Part shown: piece by piece, positions 5,116-28,114 of the stretch
How the letters are laid out: every line of letters starts with the position of its first letter
Numbering within the stretch: position 1 is the first letter of the stretch
Position numbers and translations under genes: made by a program
Source: a virus
Lineage: Duplodnaviria > Caudoviricetes
Reading direction: 5' to 3' (one strand)
IMG/VR virus record: IMGVR_UViG_3300017700_000625
Coordinates: 1 to 52,539 of that record
Length of the DNA stretch: 52,539 nucleotides
The notes under the pieces: model-generated
Databases searched by the model: none
Seen by the model: the letters and a program-made list of their open reading frames with translations, nothing else
What the model was told of the DNA's origin: nothing

Positions 5116-5178
5116 GTTCGTTTTTCCTGTCCTGCAAAGGTGGCCGTGATTGGCCTGGTCGAACCATGCGGGAGGAAG

Positions 5179-13157: not shown

Positions 13158-13171
13158 GTCCTGCAAGCCGC

Positions 13172-13235
13172 TTGACTAACTATCCAGAATTCTGGATATG
13201 TCAACCTGTCGGTAATGATTGCCAGGCATAGTCGG
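13172..13235. promoter_or_regulatory. Divergent control region 1: 18-bp palindrome TATCCAGAATTCTGGATA between opposed TTGAC hexamers, plus CtrA-like TCAA-N7-GTAAT
   Basis: TTGACT 13172(+), TTGACA 13204-13199(-), palindrome 13181-13198, box 13201-13216. Confidence 0.8.
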
Positions 13236-13257
13236 CTCATTGCAGGGAGCAAACGCC

Positions 13258-13821
13258 ATGACCTACCAAACAGAATTCCCCGATTTCGCCGCCGCCGACA
13301 TGCCGCAGATTCCGGCTGGCTGGCAGGATATCAGCTGGCACAACGACTCATGCCCCGGCTTTTCGGCCACGCCGCAAGCGCTGGCCGGAACCGGCGTCAG
13401 CATATGGGTTGACTACGCCGACGCCTCGCGCCGCGAAGTCCCCGAGTCCCCGCGCTTCACGGTCTACATGACCGACGCTGAGGGCAACCAGATTGCCGAC
13501 TTTTCTACCGACGATTGGGCCGAACTGTTGGCGCAGGCCGAACTGTTCGCGCACCGTTGGGTGCTGATTTCGCTGCTGCAGGGGCAGATTGATGATGAGG
13601 CGCAGGCCGTTGAATTCATCACGGCCCTGCACGTCACCGGCTGCAGCTATCACTTTGAAGACGACGCCACCGAATGCCTCGCTGGTATCGATTGGCTGAC
13701 GGATGCTGACCGCGTGGCGATTAACGATATCGTCGCCTCCATCTATGCGCTGGATTGCTGGACGAAAGAGCACTGCCCTTGTTCGGTCGCGCTTTCGCTT
13801 GACGAAAAAACGGCGGCTTAG
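13258..13821 (+). CDS. Hypothetical acidic protein (WQDISWHND and YHFEDD segments)
   Basis: SD gggag before ATG 13258. Confidence 0.75.
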   Translation: MTYQTEFPDFAAADMPQIPAGWQDISWHNDSCPGFSATPQALAGTGVSIWVDYADASRREVPESPRFTVYMTDAEGNQIADFSTDDWAELLAQAELFAHRWVLISLLQGQIDDEAQAVEFITALHVTGCSYHFEDDATECLAGIDWLTDADRVAINDIVASIYALDCWTKEHCPCSVALSLDEKTAA

Positions 13822-13833
13822 GCCTCCGTTAAC
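13818..13833 (+). promoter_or_regulatory. CtrA-box-like TTAG-N7-TTAAC
   Basis: One mismatch to TTAA-N7-TTAA; followed by N10, TAAGAC and the CTCATTGCAGG leader. Confidence 0.65.
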
Positions 13834-13876
13834 CTCCACCCGCTAAGACAGTCTCATTGCAGGAGAGACAAACACC

Positions 13877-14482
13877 ATGAACAGCACCGAAAAGCTTCAA
13901 GCGCTGACTGCCGAACTGAACGGCCTGACAGGCGCTGAACTGACTGACGCCACCCTTGAGGTTTCATATTGCGTCGCCCTTGAGGTGGCCGGGCGTGACG
14001 TCGACTCAATCAGCGATTGGGAGCGCATCAACCACCTCCCCAGCGATGAGCAAGCCTTTATCACGGCTTGGAATTCGGCCTATGAGCGGATGCACGCCGC
14101 CGCCGACGCTGAGCGCGCGAAGGAAGCGGCATCGGCAACCGCAAACATTCGCAGCCGCGCCAAGATGGTTGAAGACTACGGAACCGACGTTCTGGCGCCG
14201 CATGGCCTCCCGGGCGGCAGCGCTGACGAACTCTGGCATGAAGTGATTGCGGTTCGCGATGGCGAAAAAAGCGAATGGCTTGGCGACGCATGGGCGCCCG
14301 CCAGAACCCGCGAGCAAATCCAAGCCGCTGCCGATGCGCTCGCCAAGTTTTCGCGCGAGTGGGAAGAAATGGAGGAAGCTTGCCGCGACCTCAAAGACAC
14401 GCTGCGCACGGCTGAATCGCGCGGCATCACCGGCGCCCGCGTCGACGCCATCCGCGCCGAACTCGCGCGCATCGATAACTAG
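13877..14482 (+). CDS. Hypothetical helical protein
   Basis: SD aggag; 201 aa. Confidence 0.75.
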   Translation: MNSTEKLQALTAELNGLTGAELTDATLEVSYCVALEVAGRDVDSISDWERINHLPSDEQAFITAWNSAYERMHAAADAERAKEAASATANIRSRAKMVEDYGTDVLAPHGLPGGSADELWHEVIAVRDGEKSEWLGDAWAPARTREQIQAAADALAKFSREWEEMEEACRDLKDTLRTAESRGITGARVDAIRAELARIDN

Positions 14483-14491
14483 GGGGACGCC

Positions 14492-14671
14492 ATGACGGTC
14501 AAATTCCGCGTTCGCGTCACCCGCGCCTACATCACCAAACAGAACCGCAGCCGCACGTCATTTTCTGAGGAATTCGAAAACCGGGAAATGGCGAAAACGT
14601 GGATGATAGACCGCGCCCGGAAAGCCGCGCGCAACGATAACGCCGAGTCCTACATCATTGAAGAATGCTAG
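14492..14671 (+). CDS. Hypothetical protein (59 aa, absent from ORF track)
   Basis: MTVKFRVRVTRAY...IIEEC*; SD ggggga. Confidence 0.65.
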   Translation: MTVKFRVRVTRAYITKQNRSRTSFSEEFENREMAKTWMIDRARKAARNDNAESYIIEEC

Positions 14672-14680
14672 GGGGAACCT

Positions 14681-14938
14681 ATGACCATCCACGAATTTAT
14701 CGCCCGCTATTCTGTCGCGCAGCGCAGCCTGACTGCCCCGTGCGATGGCGTGGTGATGCACCAGCTGCGAGTCCCGTCGGCGCCAGAGGATAGCCGCCAC
14801 TTTGGCGCGGTGGTCGACGGTGACCGCGCGTGGGTTGTCCCGTTCTTCACTGAGGCGATGGCCGCCACCTTCATCTATGGCGCCGCCGGTGCGCTGTATG
14901 AGGCTGCGGCCGATGCACTGCAGGACGTCGCAGCATGA
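14681..14938 (+). CDS. Hypothetical protein
   Basis: SD ggggga. Confidence 0.65.
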   Translation: MTIHEFIARYSVAQRSLTAPCDGVVMHQLRVPSAPEDSRHFGAVVDGDRAWVVPFFTEAMAATFIYGAAGALYEAAADALQDVAA

Positions 14939-15204
14939 TGCACCTTGGCTGGACGTATCGTCAGGACGATGACCCCGACGCCAAGAGCGTGCGCCGCCTG
15001 CTCTATTCGGCGTGGCATGCTGAGGGCCATTCGCGCGTCATCGATCATACCGGCTATGAGGTGATGAGCGCAGAGGCTTTCCGCGCGCACATTGACGCCG
15101 GTTTTCCGCCCCGCCGGCAGCTGCTGGACAAGCACAGCAAGCGCATCAGCATGCCGTGGGATAACGCCTCAATCATTCAGCACGCAAAGGAACTGGTGGA
15201 ATGA
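14935..15204 (+). CDS. Hypothetical protein
   Basis: ATGA overlaps. Confidence 0.65.
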   Translation: MMHLGWTYRQDDDPDAKSVRRLLYSAWHAEGHSRVIDHTGYEVMSAEAFRAHIDAGFPPRRQLLDKHSKRISMPWDNASIIQHAKELVE

Positions 15205-15401
15205 CCGTCACCCCGATTACGCCCGTGGCCAGCACGATGGCCTATGACGAAAAGCGCCGCCGCTTCACGGCCGTGCGCATCACCCTGAGCGATGGAAGCG
15301 TGGTCAGCATCCCGGCCAGGGTTACCGAAATACTAATTGACCACGCGCCACAAGATCCAAGGCCGCGGCCGGCGCTGCGGCTTGTCGACGTGAAGGCCTG
15401 A
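15201..15401 (+). CDS. Hypothetical protein
   Basis: ATGA overlap. Confidence 0.6.
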   Translation: MTVTPITPVASTMAYDEKRRRFTAVRITLSDGSVVSIPARVTEILIDHAPQDPRPRPALRLVDVKA

Positions 15402-15402
15402 C

Positions 15403-15588
15403 ATGCCGAAGGTGCATATGATCGTCGTGCGTGACGATAAGTGGGAAACGATTTGCGGCCGCTGGCTGTCGACCACAAACGCCATTCGCGCTAGCGCCAT
15501 TTCACTGCACGGCCAACCACATCGCGGCCTCACGCCATATCGCAGTCAGGTAACGTGCAAAAAGTGCGTCGCCAAGTTGAAGGGTTAG
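15403..15588 (+). CDS. Small Zn-finger-like protein
   Basis: VH...TICG...VTCKKC. Confidence 0.65.
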   Translation: MPKVHMIVVRDDKWETICGRWLSTTNAIRASAISLHGQPHRGLTPYRSQVTCKKCVAKLKG

Positions 15589-15595
15589 CCCCCTT

Positions 15596-15766
15596 CTAGG
15601 GAACCACCAGCGCCAGCATCAGCAACAGGCCGGCGAGCGAACACAGCGCCCGCTGGCCGATCTGTTCCACCTCATTGGCGATCGGGCGGAACGGCCCGCC
15701 GATGAAGCCCAGCACCCACGCAGCGAACACGCAGATGACGGCGCCGGCGAGGAACCACGGAGTCAC
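15596..15766 (-). CDS. Small 2-TM protein (56 aa, absent from ORF track)
   Basis: GTGA overlap with the MuF stop; PWFLAGAVICVFAAWVLGF. Confidence 0.55.
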   Translation of the reverse strand: MTPWFLAGAVICVFAAWVLGFIGGPFRPIANEVEQIGQRALCSLAGLLLMLALVVP

Positions 15767-16587
15767 AGCGTCAGGCCTTCGGCCGCGAATTCGGCTTCCT
15801 CTGCCTCGCTATAGATTATCGCCTGAGCCTTGCAGCGGCAGCGGATATCTTGGCCGGGTTCACCGGTCGACGGCGGCGGCTTTCCCCACGTAAAAACCTT
15901 GTTGTTGTTCGCGACATGCTTAGGCCTGACGCGGTCATCGCCCACGGTGCGCCACTTGTATCGATCAAGCCCGGCCTGCGTGTGGCGGGCCTTGTCCAGC
16001 GAGCCGGAATATTTCCCCATCTGATCGGATGCGATGAGGCGCGCGCGCTTCGGTGCAAAATCCAAATCCTCGCGCAGTGATTTGGCCAACTGCCTGGCGT
16101 TCGTCCCGTCCTGATATGCTTGGGCAACGCGGGCCTCTATGGCCGTCCTGATATCGTCATCCAATTTGGTGATGTAGGCGACATTCCGCATGGTGGCCGC
16201 CTCCACCTGCTTTCGCACGTCGCCCATGGCCATGATGGGCTCGATATCCAACCGGGTCGCACCCTTCACGACGCCGGCCCAGCGGCGCCGGTGCCAACGC
16301 TCCACGTCGGTTGCCCAATCCTCGAGTTTCGGCCCGATGGTCGCGAGCGTGACCGCGCCTGCCTCGCCTAGCGTGGTCATCATGCCGGTGACAATCTGCT
16401 GCGTGACCTGGCCGCTTGCCCACACGTCTTCAATGTAGCCGATACGCTGCATGTATGCGGCCACCATCGGGCGGATTATCGAATATAGATCATCCTCGAG
16501 CGCTTTCGTGGCCTCGATCATGGCCAGCACTTTGGTGACCTTTACGCCGGCCTCATGCGCCATCTTTGTCAGGTCGAAATCAGCCAC
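15763..16587 (-). CDS. Minor head protein, MuF/SPP1 gp7 family
   Basis: RARLIASDQ, YKWRTVGDDRVRPKH, PGQDIRCRC. Confidence 0.92.
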   Translation of the reverse strand: MADFDLTKMAHEAGVKVTKVLAMIEATKALEDDLYSIIRPMVAAYMQRIGYIEDVWASGQVTQQIVTGMMTTLGEAGAVTLATIGPKLEDWATDVERWHRRRWAGVVKGATRLDIEPIMAMGDVRKQVEAATMRNVAYITKLDDDIRTAIEARVAQAYQDGTNARQLAKSLREDLDFAPKRARLIASDQMGKYSGSLDKARHTQAGLDRYKWRTVGDDRVRPKHVANNNKVFTWGKPPPSTGEPGQDIRCRCKAQAIIYSEAEEAEFAAEGLTL

Positions 16588-18042
16588 CTACTTGGCTTTC
16601 GTGGCGGGTTTCTTTGCGGCCGCCGGCGGCTCATCAGGCGGAAGCTTGTTGGGGTCGACGGGGATGGGCGCAGGCTCTGGCCGCTTCATGTCGAGTTCGT
16701 CGGGCGTGAGTTCGGCCAACGCATCCTCGAGGCCGGGATATTGGCCGCTTTCCACCATCCGATTTTGTATTGTCTTTTCCAGCGCCGCGGTGGGGATCAT
16801 GCCAGAGTTCGCATAGGCCGTGTCGGCCTCAGCGTGCAGCTTGTTGACCTCTGCCGCCTCTTTCGGGCTCATGGTCCAGATGCTCGCCCACTCATACCAA
16901 ATCTTTTTCGGGATGCTGCCGAACGTGTGGCGCAACAGCATGTCATCAAGGCGTGACAGCGATGGGCGCACGACGCGGTTCTGCATCGCCTGAATGGTGC
17001 CGGCATAATTGCGCATATCGGAATCGCCGGTGGAGTTCAGGCCCGCAGGCGACTGGCTGAGGAAGCGGGTTGCCGGGATATCGCACGCGCCAGATACGAT
17101 TTGAAGGAAGGTGTATAGCACCTTATCCACGTTGTTCAGCGCCAGCTGCTTGGACTCGTATGTCTCGCGCCCGCCCATCAGAACAACTTTATGCAGAGTC
17201 TTGCCAAGCCGCATGAGCCGCAGCCGTTCCATCACCCTGGCTGAACCCGCGTCATCGGAAAGCGCGCCCTCGAGTCCCTCCATCGTGACCACGTCAATTT
17301 TTGCTTCCTCCATCAGCGTTGCCGCAGATGAGGAACTGAGGCCGGCGTCTCGCACGGCATTATAGACCGCATCCAAAACGCTATCGCCCCACGGGTCTTG
17401 TTCCATCATGGGGTCAGGATATTCGGCGCCGATGAAGCGATGCACGCGCGACCAGTGAATTTCAATCGCGGGCGTGTTGCCGGTGGATTGCAGCTGGTAG
17501 AATTCAGGCTGCCCGAAATTCTCCGCAGCAGGATCCCAATTCAGTTGATGGCCGTTCGCCTGCAGGCGCTGGCGCGGAACGCTGACCAGATATTTCAGCC
17601 CGTCTTTCTGCACGCCCTCAACAGTCATGGGCGCTTTCAGGTCGCGGCCGCCATCGCCGCTGATGATGGCGCCGCCGCCAAAGAGGCGCGAGTATTTGAG
17701 GGCGCGGTTGACATGGTAGACGTAGCGCAGCTTTTTTTCGGCATTCTCGAGCGCTTCAATCTGCTTGGGGTTCGCCTGCCAGGCGCGCCACTCCTGCGTC
17801 ATGTCATCGGACGGAATGTCGATAATCTTCCGGCTCATCCAGTCGCTGCGGTACATCGCCTGCAGCGTTTCTTCATCGATCGCCGTGTGGCTGTAGACGT
17901 CATATCCGCGCCGGCCGGTCATCAGGTTCATGCCGGTGACCAGATTGGAGAGGCCGCGGTCATTGACCGGCTGCGCCTTGCCGCTGTCGACCACCTTAAG
18001 ATTAGCGCCCTTTGCGGCCGCTGGTTTCTTGCCCGCCATCAC
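16588..18042 (-). CDS. Portal protein, DUF1073 family
   Basis: YRSDWMSRKIIDIP, RLFGGG, WGDSVL, DIPATRF.SQSPAGLNSTGDSD. Confidence 0.92.
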   Translation of the reverse strand: MMAGKKPAAAKGANLKVVDSGKAQPVNDRGLSNLVTGMNLMTGRRGYDVYSHTAIDEETLQAMYRSDWMSRKIIDIPSDDMTQEWRAWQANPKQIEALENAEKKLRYVYHVNRALKYSRLFGGGAIISGDGGRDLKAPMTVEGVQKDGLKYLVSVPRQRLQANGHQLNWDPAAENFGQPEFYQLQSTGNTPAIEIHWSRVHRFIGAEYPDPMMEQDPWGDSVLDAVYNAVRDAGLSSSSAATLMEEAKIDVVTMEGLEGALSDDAGSARVMERLRLMRLGKTLHKVVLMGGRETYESKQLALNNVDKVLYTFLQIVSGACDIPATRFLSQSPAGLNSTGDSDMRNYAGTIQAMQNRVVRPSLSRLDDMLLRHTFGSIPKKIWYEWASIWTMSPKEAAEVNKLHAEADTAYANSGMIPTAALEKTIQNRMVESGQYPGLEDALAELTPDELDMKRPEPAPIPVDPNKLPPDEPPAAAKKPATKAK

Positions 18043-19517
18043 AGCACCCCTAGAATTCCAAGGCCGATTCCGATCATGTCGGAAACAGCGTCCATAGTCG
18101 GGTCGACCTGATCGTCAAACGATGCTGACGGAAAGCCGAGTAGTTCTGATTCGTATTCCGGCAACCATGACGCCCCCTTCGGCAGCAGGACAAGGCCGCT
18201 ATTGAAGGCCGGGGCGACGTCCAGCGCGCGGGTGTATTTGTCCTTTTCCCGCTGGATGGCCTCCACGGGAACGCCTTTCAGCGATTGGATGAGGCCGGTT
18301 CCGCTGACCTTGTCTTCAATTTTCATGCAGCGCAGCGCGCCAGTTCCCACGCCTTTGATGGCCTTGTGCTTTGCCCAGAATGTTTCCGCATTGCGCTGCA
18401 GGTCTGGGGCCTTCCACTTCCCCCGGACCTGATCCAGCAGGTAGGCTTTGCCGTCGACGCCTTTCCCCCAGCATTGGAACACGCTGAAATCGTTCTGCTC
18501 TTTGTCTTTCTGCGCGGTGTCGCCATAGATGATGCGATATTGCAGGTTCGGGAGCTCTGACCAGTAGTTCAGCGGCCGCTTGAACACCTGGCCGCCGGCG
18601 GCCATCGGGTTCTGCATGTATTGGCTGGCAAAGACGTATTCATCCGCCATCAGCAGCTTGATTTGATCCTCATTGAACTTTTCCGGCCACAGCGGGCCAT
18701 CCGGCAGGCCGTGCTCAATCGGGATTCCGTGGGTGTATTCCGCCGGATATTCCGCGCTGTTATCGATGGTCACCGGCAGGTTGAGGTGGTCCCAATAGTA
18801 GCCGCCGCCGCCTTTCAGCAGGAACCCGCAATAGTCATCCTGATGCAGCCTCTGCATGATGACGATGATGGGGACGTCTTCCACCATGATCCGGCTGCGC
18901 ATCGTGGTGTTGAACCGGGTGTTCACCTTGTTCCGCTCTGGCGCGCTGAACTGATCGTCAGGCTTTAGCGGGTCATCGATCAGAATGGCGCCGGTGAACA
19001 CGTCGGCGGCGTTCATGCGGCCGGCGCGAAATCCGGTGATGGTTCCGCGCGCAGACTTAGCCAACATGCCGCCATCTTCTGCCGTGCGCCACAGCCCTTT
19101 CCCTGACACGTCTGGCCGGATCACGCGCGGCCATAGCGCCTGATATTCCGGGCTGTTGACTACGTCCTGCGTCTGGCTCGAGTTGAAGTTAACCAGAGGG
19201 TCGCTGAATGACGTGTGGATGAAGCGCGCGTCAGGGAAGATGGCCAGCGCCCTGGCCACAAACATAATCACGGCCTCCATCGTTTTGGTGAAGCCGGGCG
19301 GAACATTGATGATGACGCGATTTCGGCGGCCCCATAGCACGTCCTCGAGAACGCGCGCGATGACGTAGTGGTGCGGGCCAACGCGGAACCGCTCACCGAA
19401 TACCGCCTTGAAAAAGAACTTGCAGAAATTGAGGTGATCGCCCTCGAGTAGCGCACGCAGCGCCAGCCGTTCATTCGTCGGCGTTGTCGTCAATATACCT
19501 GCGTCTGACAAACTCAA
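18039..19517 (-). CDS. terL: Terminase large subunit
   Basis: INVPPGFTKT Walker A, ILIDDPLK, IMQRLH, YMQNP, IEDKVSG, DDQVD nuclease motif. Confidence 0.95.
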   Translation of the reverse strand: MSLSDAGILTTTPTNERLALRALLEGDHLNFCKFFFKAVFGERFRVGPHHYVIARVLEDVLWGRRNRVIINVPPGFTKTMEAVIMFVARALAIFPDARFIHTSFSDPLVNFNSSQTQDVVNSPEYQALWPRVIRPDVSGKGLWRTAEDGGMLAKSARGTITGFRAGRMNAADVFTGAILIDDPLKPDDQFSAPERNKVNTRFNTTMRSRIMVEDVPIIVIMQRLHQDDYCGFLLKGGGGYYWDHLNLPVTIDNSAEYPAEYTHGIPIEHGLPDGPLWPEKFNEDQIKLLMADEYVFASQYMQNPMAAGGQVFKRPLNYWSELPNLQYRIIYGDTAQKDKEQNDFSVFQCWGKGVDGKAYLLDQVRGKWKAPDLQRNAETFWAKHKAIKGVGTGALRCMKIEDKVSGTGLIQSLKGVPVEAIQREKDKYTRALDVAPAFNSGLVLLPKGASWLPEYESELLGFPSASFDDQVDPTMDAVSDMIGIGLGILGVL

Positions 19518-19917
19518 GAGTTTCCTCGCTGATCGTTACCGTCGTGGTTTGCCTGACGGTGTGTTCGATCGCGCCGCCGGCGCCGTGGCCAGCGTGTTCG
19601 ACCTTGCGGACATAGCCGCGGTCCTTGCCGTGGAGGGTCAGATACCATTTCGAGGTTTCCACATCGCCCTTTTCGATTTTGTCGAACACGTTGGACTCTG
19701 CCAAATCCTTCATCCGTTCGCGGGACGCCGGGATAACGGCCATCAGTTCGGCATCGGCATTGATGCGGACTGCGAGATTGTCGCGCCGGCATCGCAGCTG
19801 CTTGGCGGCCTTGGCTATAACGCCGTTGTTCCTCCGCAGCGCGTCCGCGATTTCCTCTTTGGTGATGCCCTTCGGGCCGGTGGATTTCCCGCCATTGATG
19901 GGCGTCTGGTTTGGCAT
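19471..19917 (-). CDS. terS: Terminase small subunit
   Basis: N-terminal HTH, DLAESN...WYL..HGKDRGY; directly upstream of terL; SD aaggag before ATG 19917. Confidence 0.8.
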   Translation of the reverse strand: MPNQTPINGGKSTGPKGITKEEIADALRRNNGVIAKAAKQLRCRRDNLAVRINADAELMAVIPASRERMKDLAESNVFDKIEKGDVETSKWYLTLHGKDRGYVRKVEHAGHGAGGAIEHTVRQTTTVTISEETLEFVRRRYIDDNADE

Positions 19918-19940
19918 GCTGCGCGACTCCTTCGCGTCGG

Positions 19941-19968
19941 CTATGCCTGAATTCTGGCGGTTCGCCAA
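19941..19968 (-). promoter_or_regulatory. terS promoter TTGGCG-N5-CCAGAATTCAGG
   Basis: Operator variant at 19946-19957 in the promoter spacer. Confidence 0.6.
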
Positions 19969-20054
19969 CTGCGGGAGGAATTCGCGCGGTCAGGTAATCA
20001 TCACCAGTTCGCAGACCAGCACGTGAGTCAGCAGGCGGATGAGCCATATCGGGG

Positions 20055-20141
20055 TCACGGCGCGGGGATCCTGAACAGCATGCAGACTGCCACGAATGCG
20101 ATTGCAGCCAGCGCCAGGCCGATGGTGCGGCGGCTGGTCAT
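20055..20141 (-). CDS. Hydrophobic micropeptide (28 aa)
   Basis: MTSRRTIGLALAAIAFVAVCMLFRIPAP; ATGA coupling. Confidence 0.5.
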   Translation of the reverse strand: MTSRRTIGLALAAIAFVAVCMLFRIPAP

Positions 20142-20425
20142 AGCACGCTGCGGCGCGGGCGGCGCAACTGTTCGGCCCGCATGTGGTCAACCGCGTTGTT
20201 TATCGCCTGATTGATGGTCGCCCGTTGCGAGGGCGTAAAATCGGCGTTGGGCGGCGTCATGTTTTCCGGCGGCGGCGCCTCTGCCAGTTCGACCGTCACC
20301 GGCGGGTTTTCTGTCAGAAGCGCCAGGCGCTCGAGCGCGGCGGCAATGCGCATCAAGGTGGTGAGAACGCCAACGATTCCGCTTGCCGCAATAACCGCGA
20401 GGGTGACGGAAAGCATATCGCTCAT
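20138..20425 (-). CDS. Single-TM protein (95 aa)
   Basis: MSDMLSVTLAVIAASGIVGVLTTL; ATGA coupling. Confidence 0.6.
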   Translation of the reverse strand: MSDMLSVTLAVIAASGIVGVLTTLMRIAAALERLALLTENPPVTVELAEAPPPENMTPPNADFTPSQRATINQAINNAVDHMRAEQLRRPRRSVL

Positions 20426-20526
20426 GCTGCACCGTTCAGGATGGGCGCGACCAGCAGCAGCACGGCAGCGAACGCCAACGCGATCGCCAGCGCGATCATC
20501 AGGGCCTTGATGCTTTCGGGGCTCAT
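20422..20526 (-). CDS. Hydrophobic micropeptide (34 aa)
   Basis: MSPKASRALMIALAIALAFAAVLLLVAPILNGAA; ATGA coupling on both sides. Confidence 0.55.
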   Translation of the reverse strand: MSPESIKALMIALAIALAFAAVLLLVAPILNGAA

Positions 20527-20948: not shown

Positions 20949-20950
20949 GG

Positions 20951-21202
20951 CTAGGCCGTCTTGGGCGGGACCGCAGCACGAACGGCCGCATCCTTTGCCT
21001 CAATCAGTTTGTTGAATGCGATGGTGCGCTGAGGGCAGCGCGGCAGCGTGTCGACCATCCGGCGCGCATGCTCTGCGAACGGCCGGGAAATCGCCTGCAG
21101 CCCGGCAGGCAGATGCGCGTAATGGAAAAACCGCAGCACGTCGTCAGCCGCTAATTCGGCGGCCGTGAACTCGATTGGCGGGGGGTGGATTTCGTCGGTC
21201 AT
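20951..21202 (-). CDS. Small helical-hairpin protein, Acb2/Tad1-like candidate
   Basis: FFHYAHLP..LQ..S.PF...LP...RTIA..KL.EAKDAAVRA; SD agga. Confidence 0.5.
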   Translation of the reverse strand: MTDEIHPPPIEFTAAELAADDVLRFFHYAHLPAGLQAISRPFAEHARRMVDTLPRCPQRTIAFNKLIEAKDAAVRAAVPPKTA

Positions 21203-21261
21203 GGTGGCGCGTCCTGCATAGCGCGTCGGCGGCCCCGGGTGAGGCCGCCGCAGTCGGTAGG

Positions 21262-21831
21262 CTAGTCGAAATCGCGGGAGTGGCCGCCGCGATCATCTGC
21301 GAACGCATCGGGTTTGAGTTTGGCGAAAATGCCGCCGGCGTTGGCGGGCTGGACGTTCGATTCCAGCGCGGGCTTGTCGGCGCCGTCGTCCTCGAGGTCC
21401 ACCGTGGCGGTTTCGCCCTCGCGCTGATCGGCGGCCGGTTGTGGCGCAGGCTTCGCGGCCGGATCGACCAAATCCATTTGCCGCGTCACCGTCGCGCGTT
21501 CGGCTTCGGTCAGGCCGCTGGCAGCGGTCACAATCGCGCCCTGCGTGGCGATGCCGGCAGCGGCCGCAACGGGCTTGCCCAGCACTTCGCGGCTCTGGTC
21601 GTGGAACCGGGCAACCGCCACCGTCAGCGAGTTTTCGAGCCGGGCGTATTCGTCGGTCCAGTTCTGCAATTCGGCCTGATTCGCCAACAGCATGGCCTGA
21701 GTTTTGATGACCGCGTCTTGCGCATTCGAGCGCTTGAAAGCCGCATGGGCCTTGTCTTTTTGCAGGTCCGAAAGGGTCGTTTCGGTGACCCTGGCTGCGG
21801 TTGTCGGTTGTTCGGCGCCGTTCGAAATCAT
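21262..21831 (-). CDS. Coiled-coil hypothetical protein
   Basis: Start reassigned to ATG 21831 (gcaggac SD; a terminator lies upstream within the longer ORF call). Confidence 0.65.
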   Translation of the reverse strand: MISNGAEQPTTAARVTETTLSDLQKDKAHAAFKRSNAQDAVIKTQAMLLANQAELQNWTDEYARLENSLTVAVARFHDQSREVLGKPVAAAAGIATQGAIVTAASGLTEAERATVTRQMDLVDPAAKPAPQPAADQREGETATVDLEDDGADKPALESNVQPANAGGIFAKLKPDAFADDRGGHSRDFD

Positions 21832-21903
21832 GGGAATTTGTCCTGCCTGGTTGCCTGCCCGTGGTTCGCACCCATGGCGCAACTCGCGCCGGATTGCAAC
21901 CCT

Positions 21904-21915
21904 CCCGAATTCTGG
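21904..21915. promoter_or_regulatory. Operator variant CCCGAATTCTGG upstream of TTGCAA (-35, minus strand)
   Basis: One mismatch to the palindrome. Confidence 0.55.
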
Positions 21916-21917
21916 CT

Positions 21918-21956
21918 GAAACGAAAACGGCCCCCGGCTTGCGCTCGAGGGCCGTT
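21918..21956 (-). terminator. Intrinsic terminator
   Basis: aacggccc...gggccgtt stem, then TTTTCGTTT on the minus strand. Confidence 0.65.
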
Positions 21957-22067
21957 CGGTTCGGGCGGCTTTGCAGGACTCCCGAACCGTTGCGCGCTTG
22001 GGCAGACCAACCACGACGCCGCCGATTTGGCATAGGCCGACACGCAGCGCAAGCCGGTTCAACCATT

Positions 22068-22079
22068 CCAGAATTCTGG
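22068..22079. promoter_or_regulatory. Operator CCAGAATTCTGG
   Basis: Perfect copy just past the stop of the initiator gene. Confidence 0.6.
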
Positions 22080-22088
22080 CGCGAGCGA

Positions 22089-23009
22089 TCATTGGGCGAG
22101 CGCCACCGCGTAGCCGTGCTGTTTCAAAATCCCGCCGAACCGCTGCGCGATCTGGTCGCGCTGGAATTCTGTTTCCGCGTAGACTTCCGACCCGTTCCAA
22201 ACCGCCCCGCCAAGCCAGTTCGCTGCCGAGGCCTCGCCCTTCGCGGCGATGATCGCGCGGACCACGTCGCCGGCCTGGCCTTCGGGAATTTCCAGCGGCT
22301 TGGGCTTGGCCGTTGGCGGCGGTGGTGGTGCATCGCGTCTGGCCTCGAATTCGGCCCGCAGGGCGCCGATGAGGCGCAGGGGTTCGACCCGCTCGCCTGC
22401 GGTGCGTTCGCGAAGCACTGGCAGCACAACCGTTTCGAGGTCGAATTTATCCATGAGGCTGTCTAGCGTTCGGTCGGTGATGCCGTCCACGAACCCGTCG
22501 ACAACGCCCGGGCCAACTGCCTTCCGAATTGACGCCCTGGCAGCACTGCGCGCGGCTAGCTTGCTAGCCTCTGGCTCTGGTTCTGGCTTTGGCTCTGGCT
22601 TGCTATTGCGGTTTGGCTCTTTTTGGGATGCGTCAGGCATGCGATTGCTAGACGGGTTTTCCTTATCTTTCTGCCATCTAGCGGAGGCACCCGTTTTTGC
22701 GGCCGTTTTTCTGCGCTTGGTTTTGGCGAAAACCTCTCCGTAAACCTCCGAAAGTTTCTCGTTTTCGTACCGGCCGCGCAGCACCTTAAAGAACTCCTGC
22801 AGGATGGGTTTAACCACCCGGTCAAAATCGTCCTGGCTGACCCTCATGTGGCGCCTGACCCACGTGTCATCCGCCGGCATTGTGCCGCCCGGAGTCTCCC
22901 AACAGAGGCGCAGCAAGCGCATGTATGCGCCGTCTTCCTCGAGGTTGAGGTGCTTTGTCCCGTTATTGTATTTCGATATCCATAGGGGGAGGAATGGAAG
23001 GTCACTCAT
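22089..23009 (-). CDS. Replication initiation protein, YdaU/DUF1376 family
   Basis: LPFLPLWI..Y...TKHL..EEDGAYMRLL..CW; GA.ARW; PEPEPE linker. Confidence 0.88.
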   Translation of the reverse strand: MSDLPFLPLWISKYNNGTKHLNLEEDGAYMRLLRLCWETPGGTMPADDTWVRRHMRVSQDDFDRVVKPILQEFFKVLRGRYENEKLSEVYGEVFAKTKRRKTAAKTGASARWQKDKENPSSNRMPDASQKEPNRNSKPEPKPEPEPEASKLAARSAARASIRKAVGPGVVDGFVDGITDRTLDSLMDKFDLETVVLPVLRERTAGERVEPLRLIGALRAEFEARRDAPPPPPTAKPKPLEIPEGQAGDVVRAIIAAKGEASAANWLGGAVWNGSEVYAETEFQRDQIAQRFGGILKQHGYAVALAQ

Positions 23010-24184
23010 GCTGTTTCCCCGGTCAAAAGGTCTGGCTGAAATGATGCTGGCGACGGGCCAGGCCGCTGAACGTCAACCGCTTCGAACAGGCGGCCGCCGT
23101 CGCCATCTATTCGGGCGCGGGCCATTTCCGCATATTCCGGGTTAAGTTCGATCAGCACCGCGTTGCGGCGCATCCTGTCGGCCACCAGACCAGTTGTTCC
23201 GGCGCCCCCAAATGGGTCGAGAACTGTTCCGCCCTCCGGGCATCCGGCGAGTAGGCAGCGCTCCACCAGTTCGGGCGGGAAGGTTGCGAAATGGGCGTCA
23301 CGAAAGCCGAGGATGCCGATTTCCCAAACCTGCATAGGCGCTGGCTCATAGTTGCGGATATTCCGGCCAAGGCCTGCGGCCTGCGCCTCTTTCCAGCCGT
23401 CGTGCCGATCCTTCCACTTTTCGCCGCGGATGAGCTTTTCCCGCTGGTTGCGCAGGGCCTTGCGCTGCGAGCGGTTGCCGGTGCCGGGGTCTTTCGGGCC
23501 GCCCTGTTGGCTGTCAAATGTCGGCTGCATCAGGCGATTGATGCTCACCTGTTTGAAGGGGACGCGCACGGCGTCGATATCGTAAAAATATCGGGCTGAC
23601 TTCGTCAGCATGAAGACTTTCTCATGGGCGGTCCCGGGCCGGTCCTGCGTGCTTTCGGGCATCGGGTTGGGCTTGGCCCAGATTATTTCCGACCTGACCC
23701 ACCACCCATCTTCCTGCAGCGCAATGGCCAGGCGGTTGGGGATCATGCAAAGGTCTTTCGGCTTAAGCGTGGAGTCGCTGGCGTTTCCGCCGCCGCGCCG
23801 GCTGACACCTTCGGGAAACGGCTGGCCAGGCTGGGGCGGATTGATCGGGCCGATGGTGCTGAATGGCTTGTCGCGGAACGTGCGGTCATCGGTGCCGGCC
23901 GCTTTCGTATCGGCGGCGCTGCGGCCGTTCGGGGTGGTGGCGTAGCAATCCCCATAATTGAGCCAGAGCGTGGCGGTGGGTGTCATCACGCGGCGGATTT
24001 CGCGGAACACGTCCACCATTGTGGCGATGTGTTCGCCCAAGGTGGGTTCAAGCCCCAGCTGCCCGGCCACTCCATAGTCACGCAGGCCCCAATATGGCGG
24101 GCTGGTCACGACGCAGTCCATTGAATCGTCAGGGATGCCGCGCAGCATGTCGCGCACGTCGCCCACTAAAATCTGAACTGCCAT
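23006..24184 (-). CDS. DNA N4-C/N6-A methyltransferase (beta class)
   Basis: DCVVTSPPYWGLRDY catalytic motif before VLDPFGGAGTT SAM motif; HFATFP. Confidence 0.93.
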   Translation of the reverse strand: MAVQILVGDVRDMLRGIPDDSMDCVVTSPPYWGLRDYGVAGQLGLEPTLGEHIATMVDVFREIRRVMTPTATLWLNYGDCYATTPNGRSAADTKAAGTDDRTFRDKPFSTIGPINPPQPGQPFPEGVSRRGGGNASDSTLKPKDLCMIPNRLAIALQEDGWWVRSEIIWAKPNPMPESTQDRPGTAHEKVFMLTKSARYFYDIDAVRVPFKQVSINRLMQPTFDSQQGGPKDPGTGNRSQRKALRNQREKLIRGEKWKDRHDGWKEAQAAGLGRNIRNYEPAPMQVWEIGILGFRDAHFATFPPELVERCLLAGCPEGGTVLDPFGGAGTTGLVADRMRRNAVLIELNPEYAEMARARIDGDGGRLFEAVDVQRPGPSPASFQPDLLTGETA

Positions 24185-24408
24185 GATGTGTTTCTGCCTC
24201 TGCCCGAAATCCTGCCGCCTGACGGGTACGCCCGGCGGTTAGTGGTGGTCAACGCGAACGGGTGCGGAACGGGTGTTGAAAGCCGTTGCCTGCCGCTGCG
24301 TTGGGTCTATGTTCTGGCCAATCGACTGGCCACGCGGCCGGCTGATGGACCCTGGCGCGCTGGCTAACCTGCCCCCCAACTGCCCCCCAGCGCGCCAACC
24401 CCTCCCGA

Positions 24409-25770
24409 TCATTTCGCATCGATCGCCGCCAGCTGCTCGCCGGTGCGGCGCATAATCCAATGAATCACGTCCACGCTCATGGCGTTGCCCAGCGTCGAAT
24501 ATCTGCCGGTGAACGGGCTATCCGGCGCCAGCTGCGTGAAGCCGTCTGGAAAGCCTTGCAGGCGCTCGCATTCGGTTGGCGTGAGGCGGCGCACCGCATA
24601 GCCAACGGCGCTGGAAAGCGCCACCGCCGGCGGGACGCCTCCGTTAGCATGCGATTCCGTGAAGTTTCCGGCGCGCAGTGTGGGCGACAGGTCGGCGGTG
24701 GCGTCCTGCCCGAAGTCTTTCGAACTGAACGCTATGGGCTGGCCATATGCGACGAACGGCAGCGATGAGCCGCCGCCATCGGTGCGCAGCGCCGGCGCAA
24801 CGTCGCCCGGCTCTGGCTCTGGCATGTTGCCGCCGTCGCGGCCGCGCATGCTGAATGCTACGGGGATGAGGTGGCCAACTTTCGTATTGCTGTCAGCGCC
24901 CTTGGCGTCACGCTCTTGCAGCGCCCACGCCACGTCAGGAATCAGCGCGCTGATGTGGGCGTCAGCGCCTCCGCGTCCCGCTCTGAGGGTTCCGGCCGCT
25001 GTTGGGAAGCCGTCGACTCCAGCGCCAGCCTCAACATCGTCGGCAAAGTCTTCCCCCGGGTCTGCGCCCGGCGTAAAATCCCCGTCGCGGCCGCGGCGCT
25101 CAAATAGCACTGAGGCGGGATCCGCTCCGTTTCCAAAATCTGCGATAACGAACACTCGGTTCCGTCGTTGGGCCAAGCCGAAGTATTGAGAATTGAGAAC
25201 CCGCCAAGCCGCCCGCCCCCGTGGCCCTTGAACCATGCCTGAACTTGGGAACCCGCACGATTCCCAGCCGGTGGTTCCGGTGTCGGGATCGACTTTGCCC
25301 CAGACGGCGCCGGGCGGACATATGGGAGCGTCTGCGCCAACAAGGCCGGCCAAGAAACAGCCGAATGCGTTGTCAAAGGTGTTGAGACAGCCGGGGACGT
25401 TTTCCCAGATGAGATTGCGGAGAGGGCGAACAGGTCGGGCTGCGAGGCCATGGGCGTACTCTATCAGCTGCAGGGTGAGGTTGCCGCGCGCATCGTCCAG
25501 CGATTTGCGATTGCCTGCGACGGAAAACGCCTGACATGGCGTCCCCGCGACAAGCACGTCAACGGATGGGTAATCGTCCACGGGCGTTGCCGTGAAGTCA
25601 TCGAACAGGCGCGGGCCATTGCCAACACCGGCGCCGAAGCGGGCCGCCAATATCTTGCGCGCATAGGGCGCGATTTCCGAACAGAACAGGGTTTGCCACC
25701 CCAGCCGTTCGGCCGCGACCTCTGGCGCGCCAATGCCACTGCATAGCGTCCCCATGGTTATCTGATGCAT
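24409..25770 (-). CDS. DNA cytosine-C5 methyltransferase
   Basis: LCSGIG (I), GTPCQAFS (IV), WENVPG (VI), QRRNRVF (VIII), RRLTPTECERLQGFP (IX), LGNAM (X). Confidence 0.95.
   Translation of the reverse strand: MHQITMGTLCSGIGAPEVAAERLGWQTLFCSEIAPYARKILAARFGAGVGNGPRLFDDFTATPVDDYPSVDVLVAGTPCQAFSVAGNRKSLDDARGNLTLQLIEYAHGLAARPVRPLRNLIWENVPGCLNTFDNAFGCFLAGLVGADAPICPPGAVWGKVDPDTGTTGWESCGFPSSGMVQGPRGRAAWRVLNSQYFGLAQRRNRVFVIADFGNGADPASVLFERRGRDGDFTPGADPGEDFADDVEAGAGVDGFPTAAGTLRAGRGGADAHISALIPDVAWALQERDAKGADSNTKVGHLIPVAFSMRGRDGGNMPEPEPGDVAPALRTDGGGSSLPFVAYGQPIAFSSKDFGQDATADLSPTLRAGNFTESHANGGVPPAVALSSAVGYAVRRLTPTECERLQGFPDGFTQLAPDSPFTGRYSTLGNAMSVDVIHWIMRRTGEQLAAIDAK
24942..25451 (-). CDS. Overprinted ORF inside the C5-MTase, M.EcoHK31I beta-subunit-like
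   Basis: 169-aa alternative frame: LNTSAWPNDGTECSLSQILET..IP..CYLS....GILRRA..RGKTLP. Confidence 0.75.
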   Translation of the reverse strand: MASQPDLFALSAISSGKTSPAVSTPLTTHSAVSWPALLAQTLPYVRPAPSGAKSIPTPEPPAGNRAGSQVQAWFKGHGGGRLGGFSILNTSAWPNDGTECSLSQILETERIPPQCYLSAAAATGILRRAQTRGKTLPTMLRLALESTASQQRPEPSERDAEALTPTSAR

Positions 25771-25931
25771 TCACGCTGCCTCTTACCGTCAACCGTAAGG
25801 GTTGCGGTCCCGTCGAATAGGTCTGTTTGGATGAGGCCTAGCTGCTCGAGGCTTTCACGCACGCGGCCGTCAACGCGCGAGCCGGTGGCGGCTTGCGTCA
25901 GGCCGATGCGCTGCAGCCGCGATAGCCGCAT
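25758..25931 (-). CDS. Small winged-helix-like protein with QTDLF motif
   Basis: SLEQLGLI...LTVDG; start reassigned to ATG 25931. Confidence 0.55.
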   Translation of the reverse strand: MRLSRLQRIGLTQAATGSRVDGRVRESLEQLGLIQTDLFDGTATLTVDGKRQRECIR

Positions 25932-25938
25932 AGGCGTC

Positions 25939-26217
25939 TCAGGCGAATGCGAGTCCGTCGTCAAACAGGGCCTCTCTGGGGCTGTAGCCAGCCTTAAAAT
26001 ACTTCCACCAGCAGTCATCCCCGGCGCTGGTCACAATGTCATCGTCAGCCACTTCGGTGCGCCAGATATGGCCGATGCGCCGTTTGTAGAATTCGAATGA
26101 CAGCAGCGTGAAGCCGTCCACGATCGCGGGCCAGAGGCAGAGCGCGCAGAACACGCCGGCGGCGATGACGGGAACCAAAACGGTGAGATAGCCGAGCAGC
26201 ATTTTTCCAATCTCCAC
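25939..26217 (-). CDS. Hypothetical TM protein
   Basis: N-terminal TM; coupled to upstream gene. Confidence 0.55.
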   Translation of the reverse strand: MEIGKMLLGYLTVLVPVIAAGVFCALCLWPAIVDGFTLLSFEFYKRRIGHIWRTEVADDDIVTSAGDDCWWKYFKAGYSPREALFDDGLAFA

Positions 26218-26813
26218 TAGAACAGCGTCGGCTCAATTCGAGCAGACTTGCGCTGCCGTGTTTTGCCAGGGGCTGCGCGCTGCCGCTTAATCGGCTTTGC
26301 GATCCTGACCACGATGGGAGATTGGCGCCGAATGGTTAGCCATTTGCTAAAGGCGGCGGGAAATTCTGTTTTGAGGGCGTGGAGATAGACGCCGCATGCG
26401 TCGGCCTCATCCTCATTGCGCGCGGGCATGCCCCATGCGTTGGCATATTCAACCGCGTTGATCGGCTTGCCGCCGCCGTGGTCATAGATGAGCTTTTTGT
26501 GGGTGGACTGGTCGACCTCCACGCAATCGGCCTGCGCGTGATAGGCGAGGAATTCAACGTGAGCGGTGAGCGCGTATAGCTTGCGCTGCGCGCTGAAATT
26601 GGTGTGGCCGTGCGGCTGAATCGGGGCTTCGAAATAGACGTGGCTGCAGCCTTCAATCAGAGGCCACGCCACCTCAGCCCATTCAGCGACAAGGCGGCCA
26701 AGGTTATCCCTGGCCGCCTCGCGCACGCCGAATGAACCGATGCGCACGGCGCCGCCGGGTTCGCCACGAACCCAACCGGTGCGCCGCGTGCTGGTATCAA
26801 ACGCAACTATCAC
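26217..26813 (-). CDS. RuvC-like Holliday junction resolvase
   Basis: IVAFDTS..RTGW, VYFEAP, NEDEADA catalytic acidic set. Confidence 0.8.
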   Translation of the reverse strand: MIVAFDTSTRRTGWVRGEPGGAVRIGSFGVREAARDNLGRLVAEWAEVAWPLIEGCSHVYFEAPIQPHGHTNFSAQRKLYALTAHVEFLAYHAQADCVEVDQSTHKKLIYDHGGGKPINAVEYANAWGMPARNEDEADACGVYLHALKTEFPAAFSKWLTIRRQSPIVVRIAKPIKRQRAAPGKTRQRKSARIEPTLF

Positions 26814-27706
26814 GCGAATTCGTCTTCCTCGTCGGTGTCGAATTCGTCGTCAGCGTCGGCCACCGGCTTTGACTCGAGGCCAACGCCGGGGGTTCCTTTG
26901 TCGCCCGTTTTGTCATCGGCAAAATCAGGATCGACCACCGGCGCCTTTGTTTCCGGGGTCTTGTCGCCCTTTTTGCCCTTCTGTGCGATGCGCTTGATGG
27001 TGGCGGCCGGGTCCTCTTTTTCGGGCTTCATCGCCGGCGGGCCGGGAGGCTTGGACGCTGCAGCCTTGGCGGCTACGGCATCGGCCAAGCTGGTGACGTT
27101 GCCCTCTGGCTTGGAAGGGTCGGCCAGCGCGTCGCGTTCCTCGCCATCCTCGCCGGCGGTGGGATCCTGCGACTCCACCTCGCCGTCATCGTCGGCATCG
27201 TCCGCGAAATAGTCCTTATTCGCGAACATATCCATGCCCAGCTTTTTCTGGCCCTCATGCCAGCCGGCCATCCAATCCTGATGACGGCCGTTCCATTCCG
27301 GCGGCGGCTTCGGATCATCACCGGCTATGCCGGCGCGGAAGCCTGCAGCGGTGGCGGCGTCGGCGTCGCGCTCCACGTCTTTCGGGAACAGGTCGGCCTG
27401 CTTTCCGACGGGGATTTTCAGCCAGCGCATATAACGCAGGCGTTCGGCCAGGTCGGCGGTGACGTCTTTGGGTTCCATGTCGCGCAGCGTGCGCACGGCG
27501 TCGAAAGTTTTCAGCTTCACGCCCCGGGTTTTCAGGTCTTTGCGGAAACGGCCGATTGCCCTGTTCAGCGCCTCACGCTGCGCCTCGAATTTATCCATGC
27601 GGCGATTTGCGGCATGAAAGGTGGCCTCCATGATATCGTCTGGCAGGCCGTCGATATTGTCCCCCGGAACCGCTTCACGCGGCGGGGCCTCTGGTTTTCT
27701 CGCCAT
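26810..27706 (-). CDS. GapR-like plus RMF-like domain protein with acidic tail
   Basis: RKDLKTRGVKLKTFDAVRTLRDM; AGFRAGIAG...P...WMAGWHEG; start reassigned to ATG 27706. Confidence 0.6.
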   Translation of the reverse strand: MARKPEAPPREAVPGDNIDGLPDDIMEATFHAANRRMDKFEAQREALNRAIGRFRKDLKTRGVKLKTFDAVRTLRDMEPKDVTADLAERLRYMRWLKIPVGKQADLFPKDVERDADAATAAGFRAGIAGDDPKPPPEWNGRHQDWMAGWHEGQKKLGMDMFANKDYFADDADDDGEVESQDPTAGEDGEERDALADPSKPEGNVTSLADAVAAKAAASKPPGPPAMKPEKEDPAATIKRIAQKGKKGDKTPETKAPVVDPDFADDKTGDKGTPGVGLESKPVADADDEFDTDEEDEFA

Positions 27707-27773
27707 AGTCGGGTCGCTCCTGTTTGTGTGGTGACGTGGTGGTCCGCTTGCCGCGCCTGCATCGCGTGTGTGG

Positions 27774-28013
27774 TTAGGCCTTTTTAGGCAGGTTCGCCCT
27801 GAACTCTCTGACTGCGTCGCGGATGGCGTCAACAGCGTCGAGAGTTTTGTTAGAATATCCGGGCTGAATCATTGAATTGACTGTGGAGAGCGGGAGGCCG
27901 ATCGCGTCGGCCAGAGCCTGGCCGGTGATGGCTTTGGCCTTCACCATCCGCCTGGCAGCGGCAAGGGGCGAGTAGCAATTGGCTTTCGGTTTTTCGGGGG
28001 CGTTGTTCGTCAA
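27774..28013 (-). CDS. Cro/XRE-like HTH regulator (79 aa)
   Basis: TGQALADAIGLPLSTVNSM HTH; TTG start after SD ggag; first gene after the operator-containing promoter. Confidence 0.75.
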   Translation of the reverse strand: MTNNAPEKPKANCYSPLAAARRMVKAKAITGQALADAIGLPLSTVNSMIQPGYSNKTLDAVDAIRDAVREFRANLPKKA

Positions 28014-28049
28014 GTTCGTTTTCTCCGGTTGCACGCCAGCGCGAAAACC

Positions 28050-28114
28050 AATATACAGAATTCTGGCGAGGCGGCAACACTCGGTTAAGCTTCGCGGTCT
28101 AGGTTGGATGCAGG
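28050..28114. promoter_or_regulatory. Divergent control region 2: leftward TTGCCG-N5-CCAGAATTCTG-TATATT; rightward GCAA-N7-TTAAG-N10-TAGGTT
   Basis: Operator 28055-28066; box 28074-28089; TGCAGG at 28109. Confidence 0.75.

Follow-up and report, generated by a model that had tools for sequence, protein, structure and literature searches.

What sets the direction of transcription where two phage gene blocks diverge from one short stretch of DNA? The question arises twice in IMGVR_UViG_3300017700_000625, an uncultured freshwater phage whose entire virus record of 52,539 nt was analysed (the window). At both divergent junctions, J1 near 13.2 kb and J2 near 28.1 kb, a palindrome located in the spacer of a leftward sigma70-type promoter adjoins a rightward element that resembles the binding box of the host regulator CtrA. 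An earlier interpretation made from the letters alone (the sequence-only reading) took this arrangement for a phage operator interlocked with a host cell-cycle box. The operator part of that interpretation is well supported and proves broader than was claimed, whereas the CtrA part is plausible but unproven.

Layout of the two junctions

All the junction elements named by the sequence-only reading are present at both sites. At J1, the palindrome CCAGAATTCTGG (13184-13195) lies in the spacer of a leftward sigma70-type promoter (13177..13204, minus strand), in which 15-16 nt holding the palindrome separate the -35 TTGACA (13204-13199) from a -10-like ATAGTT or TAGTTA (13183-13177). This promoter is predicted to drive the gene at 13148/13166..12942 and the genes downstream of it. 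The rightward box promoter (13201..13246, plus strand) consists of TCAA-N7-GTAA (13201-13215; 13201-13216 with the trailing T), N10, the -10-like hexamer CATAGT (13227-13232) and a leader with TGCAGG (13241-13246), followed by gene 13258-13821 with its ATG at 13258. At J2, the operator ACAGAATTCTGG (CCAGAATTCTGT on the minus strand; 28055-28066) lies inside the spacer of the leftward promoter TTGCCG-16-TATATT (28050..28077, minus strand; TTGCCG at 28077-28072), which is predicted to drive a helix-turn-helix (HTH) gene, a RuvC-like gene, two DNA methyltransferase genes and a DUF1376 gene. The rightward box promoter of J2 (28074..28114, plus strand) has GCAA-N7-TTAA (28074-28088; 28074-28089 with the trailing G), N10, TAGGTT (28100-28105) and TGCAGG (28109-28114). 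It is predicted to serve gene 28137-28376 (ATG at 28137) and then the SMC-like, PDDEXK, AAA_24 and ATPase genes. A consensus promoter scanner called the J2 leftward promoter independently (9 of 12 matches) and made no call at J1, where the best -10 (TAGTTA or ATAGTT) fails the rule of the scanner. The motifs and their positions, like the statistics and the conservation given below, are read directly from the DNA.

Relatives were sought among viral contigs. A terminase scan gave 43 loci, only two of which, G001 (56,123 bp) and G002 (53,710 bp), also have the early genes; the gene order of each is collinear with that of the window, and conserved genes show 64-77% nucleotide identity. The same contigs yielded no further relatives with a 340-aa protein, and a scan with a 187-aa protein gave one provirus match sharing that gene only. 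Alignment of the J1-left protein found only G001 and G002 among viral and metagenome contigs. As the sequence-only reading had stated for the window, the leftward -35 and the upstream half-site of the box are the same DNA at J1 and J2, and this is also seen in G001.

The palindrome of J1 is part of a longer imperfect inverted repeat (13172-13204) running from TTGAC to GTCAA. A rightward sigma70-type promoter (TTGACT 13172-13177, 17 nt, GATATG) could share the operator there. At J1 of G001 and G002, -35-like hexamers are also present left of the palindrome.

A palindromic operator in sigma70-type promoters

The palindrome is strongly over-represented. At up to one mismatch, CAGAATTCTG has 12 matches (six exact) against 1.31 expected, and none of 100 shuffles reaches 12. 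The J1 form CCAGAATTCTGG at up to two mismatches is found 12 times in the window and 17 times in G001, compared with 1.6 and 1.9 in the respective shuffles. At least nine of the 12 window sites are non-coding (4357, 5710, 13184, 19946, 22068, 28055, 31057, 40406 and 50958), as judged by reading the sequence contexts. Among the 32 palindrome sites of the three genomes, 15 are preceded on one strand by TTG at a distance of 10-13 nt, compared with 11.6% of random positions. Read toward the downstream gene, several sites have a common layout of TTGNNN, 3-6 nt, (CG)C-CAGAATTCTG and a TA-rich hexamer; examples are 28055 (minus), 31057 (plus, before the recE-like gene), 5710 (minus), 19946 (minus) and 13184 (both strands). 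Over-representation together with placement between -35 and -10 is what a repressor operator shows, and we regard the operator finding as solid.

Three of these examples stand away from the junctions. The promoter TTGATC-gcgcgc-CAGAATTCTG-TATATA (31046..31073, plus strand) precedes the PDDEXK (recE-like) gene 31106-32278 and is kept in G001 (9745) and G002 (9222). TTGGCG-aac-CGCCAGAATTCAGG-CATAG (19946..19968, minus strand) precedes the small-terminase-like gene, and the same -35 is found in G001 at 22188. The promoter-like site TTGACC-gct-CGCCAGAATTCTGG (5710..5732, minus strand) heads a structured non-coding stretch of about 480 nt. The sequence-only reading assigned the operator to leftward and the CtrA box to rightward transcription. 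The division is not strict, the promoter at 31046-31073 being a rightward one with an operator.

The palindrome occurs at orthologous positions in all three genomes, at J1-left, J2-left and the recE-like promoter, which further supports its reading as a phage operator in the spacer of sigma70-type promoters. In G002 it reads CGCAGA-WW-TCTGCG at all three of its sites and lacks the GAATTC core. Because all three sites have changed alike, a phage-coded binder is suggested, for which such a concerted change would be predicted. The best candidate is the 79-aa HTH protein (27774..28013, minus strand), the first gene of the J2 leftward operon, whose predicted helix-turn-helix has its helices at residues 9-16 and 20-27. 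Pfam and PDB gave no match for it, and PHROG a weak one. The putative recognition helix reads S..N.M in both the window and G001 and R..A.M in G002, so that differences at two positions appear to track the operator change, a suggestive pattern among three sequences only.

The palindrome might instead be a site for a host factor, a GAATTC-based methyltransferase or restriction target, or a spacer element read by the polymerase itself. The phage codes for two DNA methyltransferases, and GAATTC is over-represented in the window (42 against 16.1 expected, reached by none of 100 shuffles), with 11 of the 42 in palindrome sites. Two exact copies have no TTG at -35 distance: 4357..4368, between gene 5115-4387 and the capsid gene, and 22068..22079, just 3' of the DUF1376 gene. 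The HTH proteins of the window and G001 are just 33% identical, yet their palindrome is the same. The G002 palindrome without GAATTC speaks against a target built on that hexamer, as do the at least nine non-coding sites of 12 against a non-operator role in general, and the fixed position relative to -35 and -10 at orthologous promoters, with the concerted change in G002, fits a sequence-specific dimeric binder evolving with the phage. We therefore consider such a non-operator role very unlikely.

A direct-repeat box in place of the -35 element

Box and leader together form a composite that is rare by chance. With a box at up to two mismatches and TGCAGG 18-45 nt downstream, seven hits are found against 0.90 expected, and none of 300 shuffles reaches seven. 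Two are the rightward junction promoters, a third is the J1 box read leftward, and the hit at 879, within a gene, looks like chance. The other three (13818, 5194 and 40402) are new promoter-positioned sites, and the layout is thus not limited to two copies. The description of a switch built twice was an undercount, with at least six operator-bearing promoters and five box promoters in the window.

The third box promoter (13818..13863, plus strand) has TTAG-N7-TTAA (13818-13832) with the trailing C at 13833, N10, TAAGAC (13844-13849) and TGCAGG (13858-13863) upstream of gene 13877-14482. The fourth (5131..5194, minus strand) has GCAA-N7-TTAA(C) (5194-5179) with no adjacent palindrome, N10, CATGGT (5168-5163) and TGCAGG (5136-5131), and precedes gene 5115-4387, just upstream of the major capsid gene. 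The fifth (40356..40417, minus strand) carries a perfect TTAA-N7-TTAA(C) (40402-40387; 15-nt core 40388-40402) beside the palindrome-like CCAGAATTCGGG (40417-40406, one mismatch), followed by N10-12, GGTATGT and TGCAGG (40361-40356). It precedes gene 40343-39846 (Peptidase_C93), with the endolysin gene 39220-38438 just downstream of it. Mismatches to TTAA-N7-TTAA number two at J1, J2 and 5194, one at 13818 and none at 40388-40402. The N10 spacing to a -10-like hexamer is found at four of the five window promoters, and the hexamer at 40402 is poor.

The leader is less specific than the sequence-only reading had it. TGCAGG is not confined to the junctions; it stands before many gene starts and is thus one part of a recurring module of leader and ribosome-binding site. 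It occurs 66 times in the window against 33.4 expected, about twofold. The leader CCTTGCAGGACA(A)GGA is found shortly before the ATG of three genes (5131-5143, 31085-31100 and 40349-40364), and the starts at 13157, 13258, 13877, 14936 and 21202 likewise follow TGCAGGA or TGCAGGG.

If transcription starts about 7 nt after the hexamer, the box spans approximately -38 to -24 relative to this predicted start site. In CtrA-activated promoters, the 5' base of the full motif lies near the -35 region, with examples at -39, -39 and -32 (Zhou 2015, PMC4287350). The rightward elements thus look like CtrA-activated promoters in sequence type and, with the predicted 5' base near -38, in geometry, as had been proposed. 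Accepted CtrA sites include some with degenerate left halves at the -35 position, in fliQ and fliL (Rijal 2024, PMC11264516), published sites with one or two mismatches exist (PMC4287350, PMC11264516), and half-motif activators have been described (PMC4287350). TTAA-N7-TTAA also lies upstream of mapped start sites in Methylosinus, which belongs to the order that the host clue given below points to (PMC12403871). Boxes of the PhoB type are made of direct-repeat units of 11 bp and stand beside the -10 where a -35 would otherwise be (PMC4971064, citing Makino 1986 and Blanco 2002). The window box resembles the pho box in having two direct-repeat units of 11-bp period next to the -10 in place of a -35; the half-site sequences differ, and the binder of the window box is a putative one. 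Judged by its sequence and placement, the box looks like a site for an activator of the OmpR/PhoB family, with CtrA as the best sequence match.

The relatives keep the box to different degrees. In G001, each junction still has the two half-sites N7 apart amid diverged flanks, and three blocks at J2 (GGCAACACTCG, TTAA and CTAGGTTG) match the window letter for letter. What G002 retains at the orthologues of J1-right, J2-right, 5194 (TTAAC-N10-CATGGT) and 40402, four promoters in all, is the right half-site (TTAAC, CTAAC or TTAAG) spaced by exactly 10 nt from a -10-like hexamer. At J2 of G002, 11-12 inserted nt part the leftward -35 from where the box would lie, and the left half is degenerate in the alignment; the spacer at J1 is longer by an insertion of 5 nt. 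As judged from these three genomes, the core that is invariant in the clade is the right half-site, N10 and the -10. Only the window and G001 have the left half at N7, and its overlap with the leftward -35 is thus not conserved across the clade. The looser pattern YAAC-N6-KTAA has six matches in the window against 2.18 expected (none of 100 shuffles reaches this), five against 2.19 in G001 (seven of 100 shuffles) and none against 1.53 in G002.

The junction boxes could be by-products that bind no activator, the left half being the leftward -35 read backwards and the right half a promoter-proximal or leader element. Sigma70 polymerase alone would then transcribe the rightward genes, starting at the weak -10-like hexamers or at a second promoter with an operator, for which J1 offers as -35 candidates TTGACT (13172-13177) in the window, TTGCCC in G001 and TGGACA in G002. 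TTGACA read backwards yields TCAA automatically, the genome-wide box count is at chance, a -35-like hexamer lies left of the J1 palindrome in all three genomes at 16-18 nt from a possible -10, and G002 parts the -35 from the right half and loses neither. Yet the left half is not merely a -35 read backwards, because the box recurs at 5194 and 13818, and also at 40402, where no divergent promoter needs it. The enriched composite, the N10 spacing fixed at orthologous promoters in all three genomes, and one perfect consensus where rough arithmetic (52.5 kb, 62% G+C) expects about 0.1 also argue for a real element, and J2 of the window has no -35-like hexamer left of the palindrome. On this evidence, by-products seem quite unlikely.

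The direct repeat may also be a genuine activator site with a binder other than CtrA, either a phage-coded middle or late activator or another host response regulator. Lambda CII binds a direct repeat straddling the -35, and the T4 MotA box replaces the -35. With a phage activator, the timing of the box-bearing genes would lie with the phage, and the junction overlap would form a switch purely internal to it. Such a binder would suit the genes that the boxes precede (head, lysis-region, recombination and accessory), which look like a phage temporal class, and left halves that are consistently off TTAA (GCAA in two of the five window boxes, TCAA in one, TTAG in one). It would also suit the presence of the full box in the window and G001 but not in G002. 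Many small early ORFs (open reading frames) without a family match could code for regulators; genes 13877-14482 and 14681-14938 are common to the window and G001 and missing from G002. Against a phage factor, none of the phage proteins showed an activator domain, whether OmpR-type, sigma or other; six-frame searches of the window, G001 and G002 gave no match to the OmpR-type DNA-binding domain or to sigma70 region 2. A search for a T7-type RNA polymerase also gave no match, but its control was likewise silent and the search is uninformative. The best sites match the CtrA consensus at zero or one mismatch, trailing C included, and the right half-site is kept in all three phages while the operator changes, which suits a shared host factor. 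A binder other than CtrA is therefore somewhat unlikely, in our estimate.

CtrA~P as the activator of the box promoters remains tentative, at a little short of an even chance, on the sequence match and placement of the box. It is a plausible reading that gains from the three additional sites, one of them perfect, and loses in that the box is not fully conserved in one of the two relatives. The box was scored against the alphaproteobacterial CtrA consensus TTAA-N7-TTAA(C). Several results weigh against CtrA and the repressor proposed with it. The scan for CtrA sites against shuffled sequence that the sequence-only reading had suggested, run here with the consensus, found the genome-wide matches at chance: 46 boxes at up to two mismatches against 46.13 expected, with 54 of 100 shuffles reaching 46. 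At up to one mismatch there are five against 2.74, a number reached by 15 of 100 shuffles. A crude gene caller left 25 gaps, from which 11 intervals (2,106 nt) were kept by hand after gaps covered by a long ORF had been dropped and two gaps around 5116-5876 merged. These hold nine boxes at up to two mismatches against 2.6-2.7 (P 0.002-0.004) and two at up to one mismatch against 0.2 (P 0.02). Over all 19 caller gaps outside 40418-46541 (3,720 nt), the nine compare with 4.66 (P 0.048). The intergenic enrichment exists but is modest and depends on how intergenic DNA is defined. Right half, N10 and hexamer as a pattern are not enriched genome-wide (6-7 against 6.4-8.9), and a strict regular expression of the box, fitted to the sites themselves, is circular and was given no weight. 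Both junction boxes carry two mismatches; left halves are mostly GCAA or TCAA, without the second T, and the leftward -35 in any case accounts for those at the junctions. A box with N7 spacing is missing from G002 at J1, J2 and the head promoter, and at the equivalent of 40402, G001 has the palindrome in a sigma70-type spacer with neither box nor N10 geometry. The boxes, at 5.2, 13.2, 13.8, 28.1 and 40.4 kb, do not cluster in the manner by which CtrA phages have been recognised, and the host clue rests on terminase identities of 53-54%. The HTH model has a mean pLDDT of 67.5 (low confidence), and the low identity of the HTH proteins in two phages with the same operator also counts here.

Other readings were discarded. 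Half-site, spacer and -10 as a general promoter class was rejected for want of enrichment. A sigma54 promoter, and the TAAC element as a sigma70 -35 or -10, were rejected by eye, the spacings being unfit.

Model and comparison with known switches

We propose two promoter classes. Class O would be sigma70-type, with a TTGNNN -35, a spacer of 15-17 nt carrying CCAGAATTCTGG and a TA-rich -10; its members would be the leftward promoters of both junctions, the recE-like promoter and the small terminase promoter. A phage-coded dimeric repressor would bind the palindrome and shut these promoters off, and the 79-aa HTH protein in this role would control its own expression. Class B would have no -35 hexamer. 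In its place would be a direct repeat of 11-bp period, (G/T)(C/T)AAC-N6-(G/T)TAA(C), ending 10 nt upstream of a -10-like hexamer and followed by a short leader with TGCAGG and a Shine-Dalgarno sequence. Its five members would be J1-right, J2-right, 13818, 5194 (before the head genes) and 40402 (before Peptidase_C93 and the endolysin). The repeat would be the site of an OmpR/PhoB-family activator, CtrA~P being the best match, and CtrA~P would bring RNA polymerase to the promoters of class B. Because the leftward -35 and the upstream half-site coincide at J1 and J2, it would also keep the polymerase off the leftward promoter there. The binding proteins and the sign of regulation in this scheme, as well as the host and the start sites, are what we infer from the observed motifs.

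Taken as a whole, the scheme would describe a phage outside the published CtrA-phage groups that uses host CtrA~P for an entire promoter class, for recombination, accessory, head and lysis-region genes, while its own HTH repressor governs the sigma70 class and no lysogeny module of CI and integrase is present. Host cell cycle and repressor would jointly set the direction of transcription at the junctions. We judge this complete picture unlikely as it stands.

CtrA sites in alphaproteobacterial phages, which the sequence-only reading had taken as established, are indeed published with binding shown: CtrA binds and regulates in these phages at clustered sites, and "lytic deferment" has been proposed (Mascolo 2022, PMC9437464). 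The window phage has no relation to published CtrA phages by DNA search. In both cases, sites of the TTAA-N7-TTAA type lie in intergenic promoter regions, junctions of divergent blocks included, one window site likewise precedes lysis-region genes, and both lead to the idea of a phage reading the host cell cycle through CtrA. The phages described by Mascolo 2022 have a dense, high-scoring cluster in a terminal repeat or gap region, whereas the window has five dispersed single sites, mostly with one or two mismatches and without genome-wide excess. Binding was shown for the former, whereas those of the window are putative sites. What would be new is therefore the dispersion of the sites, each serving a single promoter, and their overlap with a phage operator promoter at the two junctions.

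In Caulobacter, single CtrA sites are described as activating one promoter and repressing another; at ctrA itself, P2 is activated, P3 repressed and P1 repressed (PMC4287350). By the same logic, a CtrA site at the junctions would activate the promoter for which its 5' base is near -39 and repress the other, with whose core elements it overlaps. The Caulobacter promoters are tandem on one strand, whereas those of the window are divergent and the repressed one also carries a phage operator.

In the divergent early regions of lambdoid phages, operators overlap PR and PRM and are bound by Cro and CI. The window has in common with them a small HTH gene heading an operon at a divergent junction and a palindromic operator inside the core promoter, and the diverged operators of its clade recall the heteroimmune lambdoid phages. 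Lambdoid regions have three operators, whereas each junction here has a single one, which is reused across the genome, structural-gene promoters included. Unlike in lambdoid phages, neither a CI-type repressor nor an integrase was found in the window, with six-frame searches of the window, G001 and G002 giving no match to a tyrosine integrase, and the opposing promoter appears to depend on an activator acting through a direct repeat.

If the scheme is true, phages would exploit the host cell cycle through a second architecture besides the published cluster of sites in one region. Single sites would each serve a promoter of replication-recombination, head or lysis-region genes and would be coupled to a phage repressor switch at two junctions, and "lytic deferment" would become testable at single promoters on short, defined DNA targets. 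If CtrA does not bind, a clean map of two promoter classes and a defined operator still result for an uncultured freshwater phage clade, and the control would be ordinary phage biology.

Gene blocks, host clues and a structured stretch

With about 52.4 kb, the window is the complete genome of a tailed phage, assembled as a circle. One DNA run from a freshwater metagenome contains the stretch and may be where it came from; no RNA run is listed as containing it. The 123-nt "direct terminal repeat" at 1-123 and 52417-52539 has the identical length at the ends of G001 and G002, and because the same length recurs in all three we read it as the assembler overlap of a circular contig and not as a biological terminal repeat. 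Genes were labelled with Pfam and PHROG. On the minus strand, one block runs from 13166 to approximately 266 (small ORFs, DUF5131, head genes). The block from 28013 to 15596 (minus) begins with the 79-aa HTH protein, the 340-aa protein and the RuvC-like gene, continues with the C5 and N6/N4 DNA methyltransferases and DUF1376, and ends with the small terminase with HTH_8, the large terminase and the portal. A third minus-strand block, 52437 to 36102, holds the tail genes, a 1,673-aa protein, Peptidase_C93 and the endolysin. The rightward blocks are 13258 to 15588 (small ORFs) and 28137 to 36160 (small ORFs, SMC-like ATPase, PDDEXK (recE-like), AAA_24, then an ATPase, a zinc-finger protein and an HNH protein).

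The clue to an alphaproteobacterial host is weak. Among four relatives in species-representative genomes, the nearest terminases are from a Methylobacterium metagenome-assembled genome (54%) and Beijerinckia sp. (53%). The nearest portals of cultured phages would point the same way (five Rhizobium phages, 37-39%), and the nearest capsid matches come from mixed hosts. The N6/N4 methyltransferase was rejected as a CcrM-type host clue, scoring 90 bits against the 830-bit cut-off of the CcrM equivalog; its PDB matches are generic.

The Peptidase_C93 gene 39846-40343 (minus) codes for a transglutaminase-like cysteine protease, a BTLCP homologue (E 2.1e-11), and tblastn found no homologue in G001 or G002. 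Residues 155-195 of the 340-aa protein (26810-27832, minus; the second gene of the J2 leftward operon) match the domain of the ribosome modulation factor at a score below the threshold (26.2 bits, cut-off 27.9).

Gene 13258-13821, which opens the rightward block at J1, has no counterpart in G001 or G002, and the one relative detected (45% identity over residues 6-96) comes from a provirus record. In G001, the predicted J1 box promoter would drive the homologue of the second gene of the window, 13877-14482. The window may have gained gene 13258-13821 together with a duplicated box promoter.

Between the operator promoter at 5710-5732 and a terminator-like hairpin near 5230, about 480 nt (5215-5700, minus strand) contain no convincing ORF. 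Rfam and ARAGORN gave no Rfam, tRNA or tmRNA match for this stretch. Its predicted fold has -245.8 kcal/mol (z -6.38), and none of 100 shuffles is as good. The stretch is partly conserved with G001, including a common GGTTTCTAGAGC block, and may be a phage non-coding RNA.

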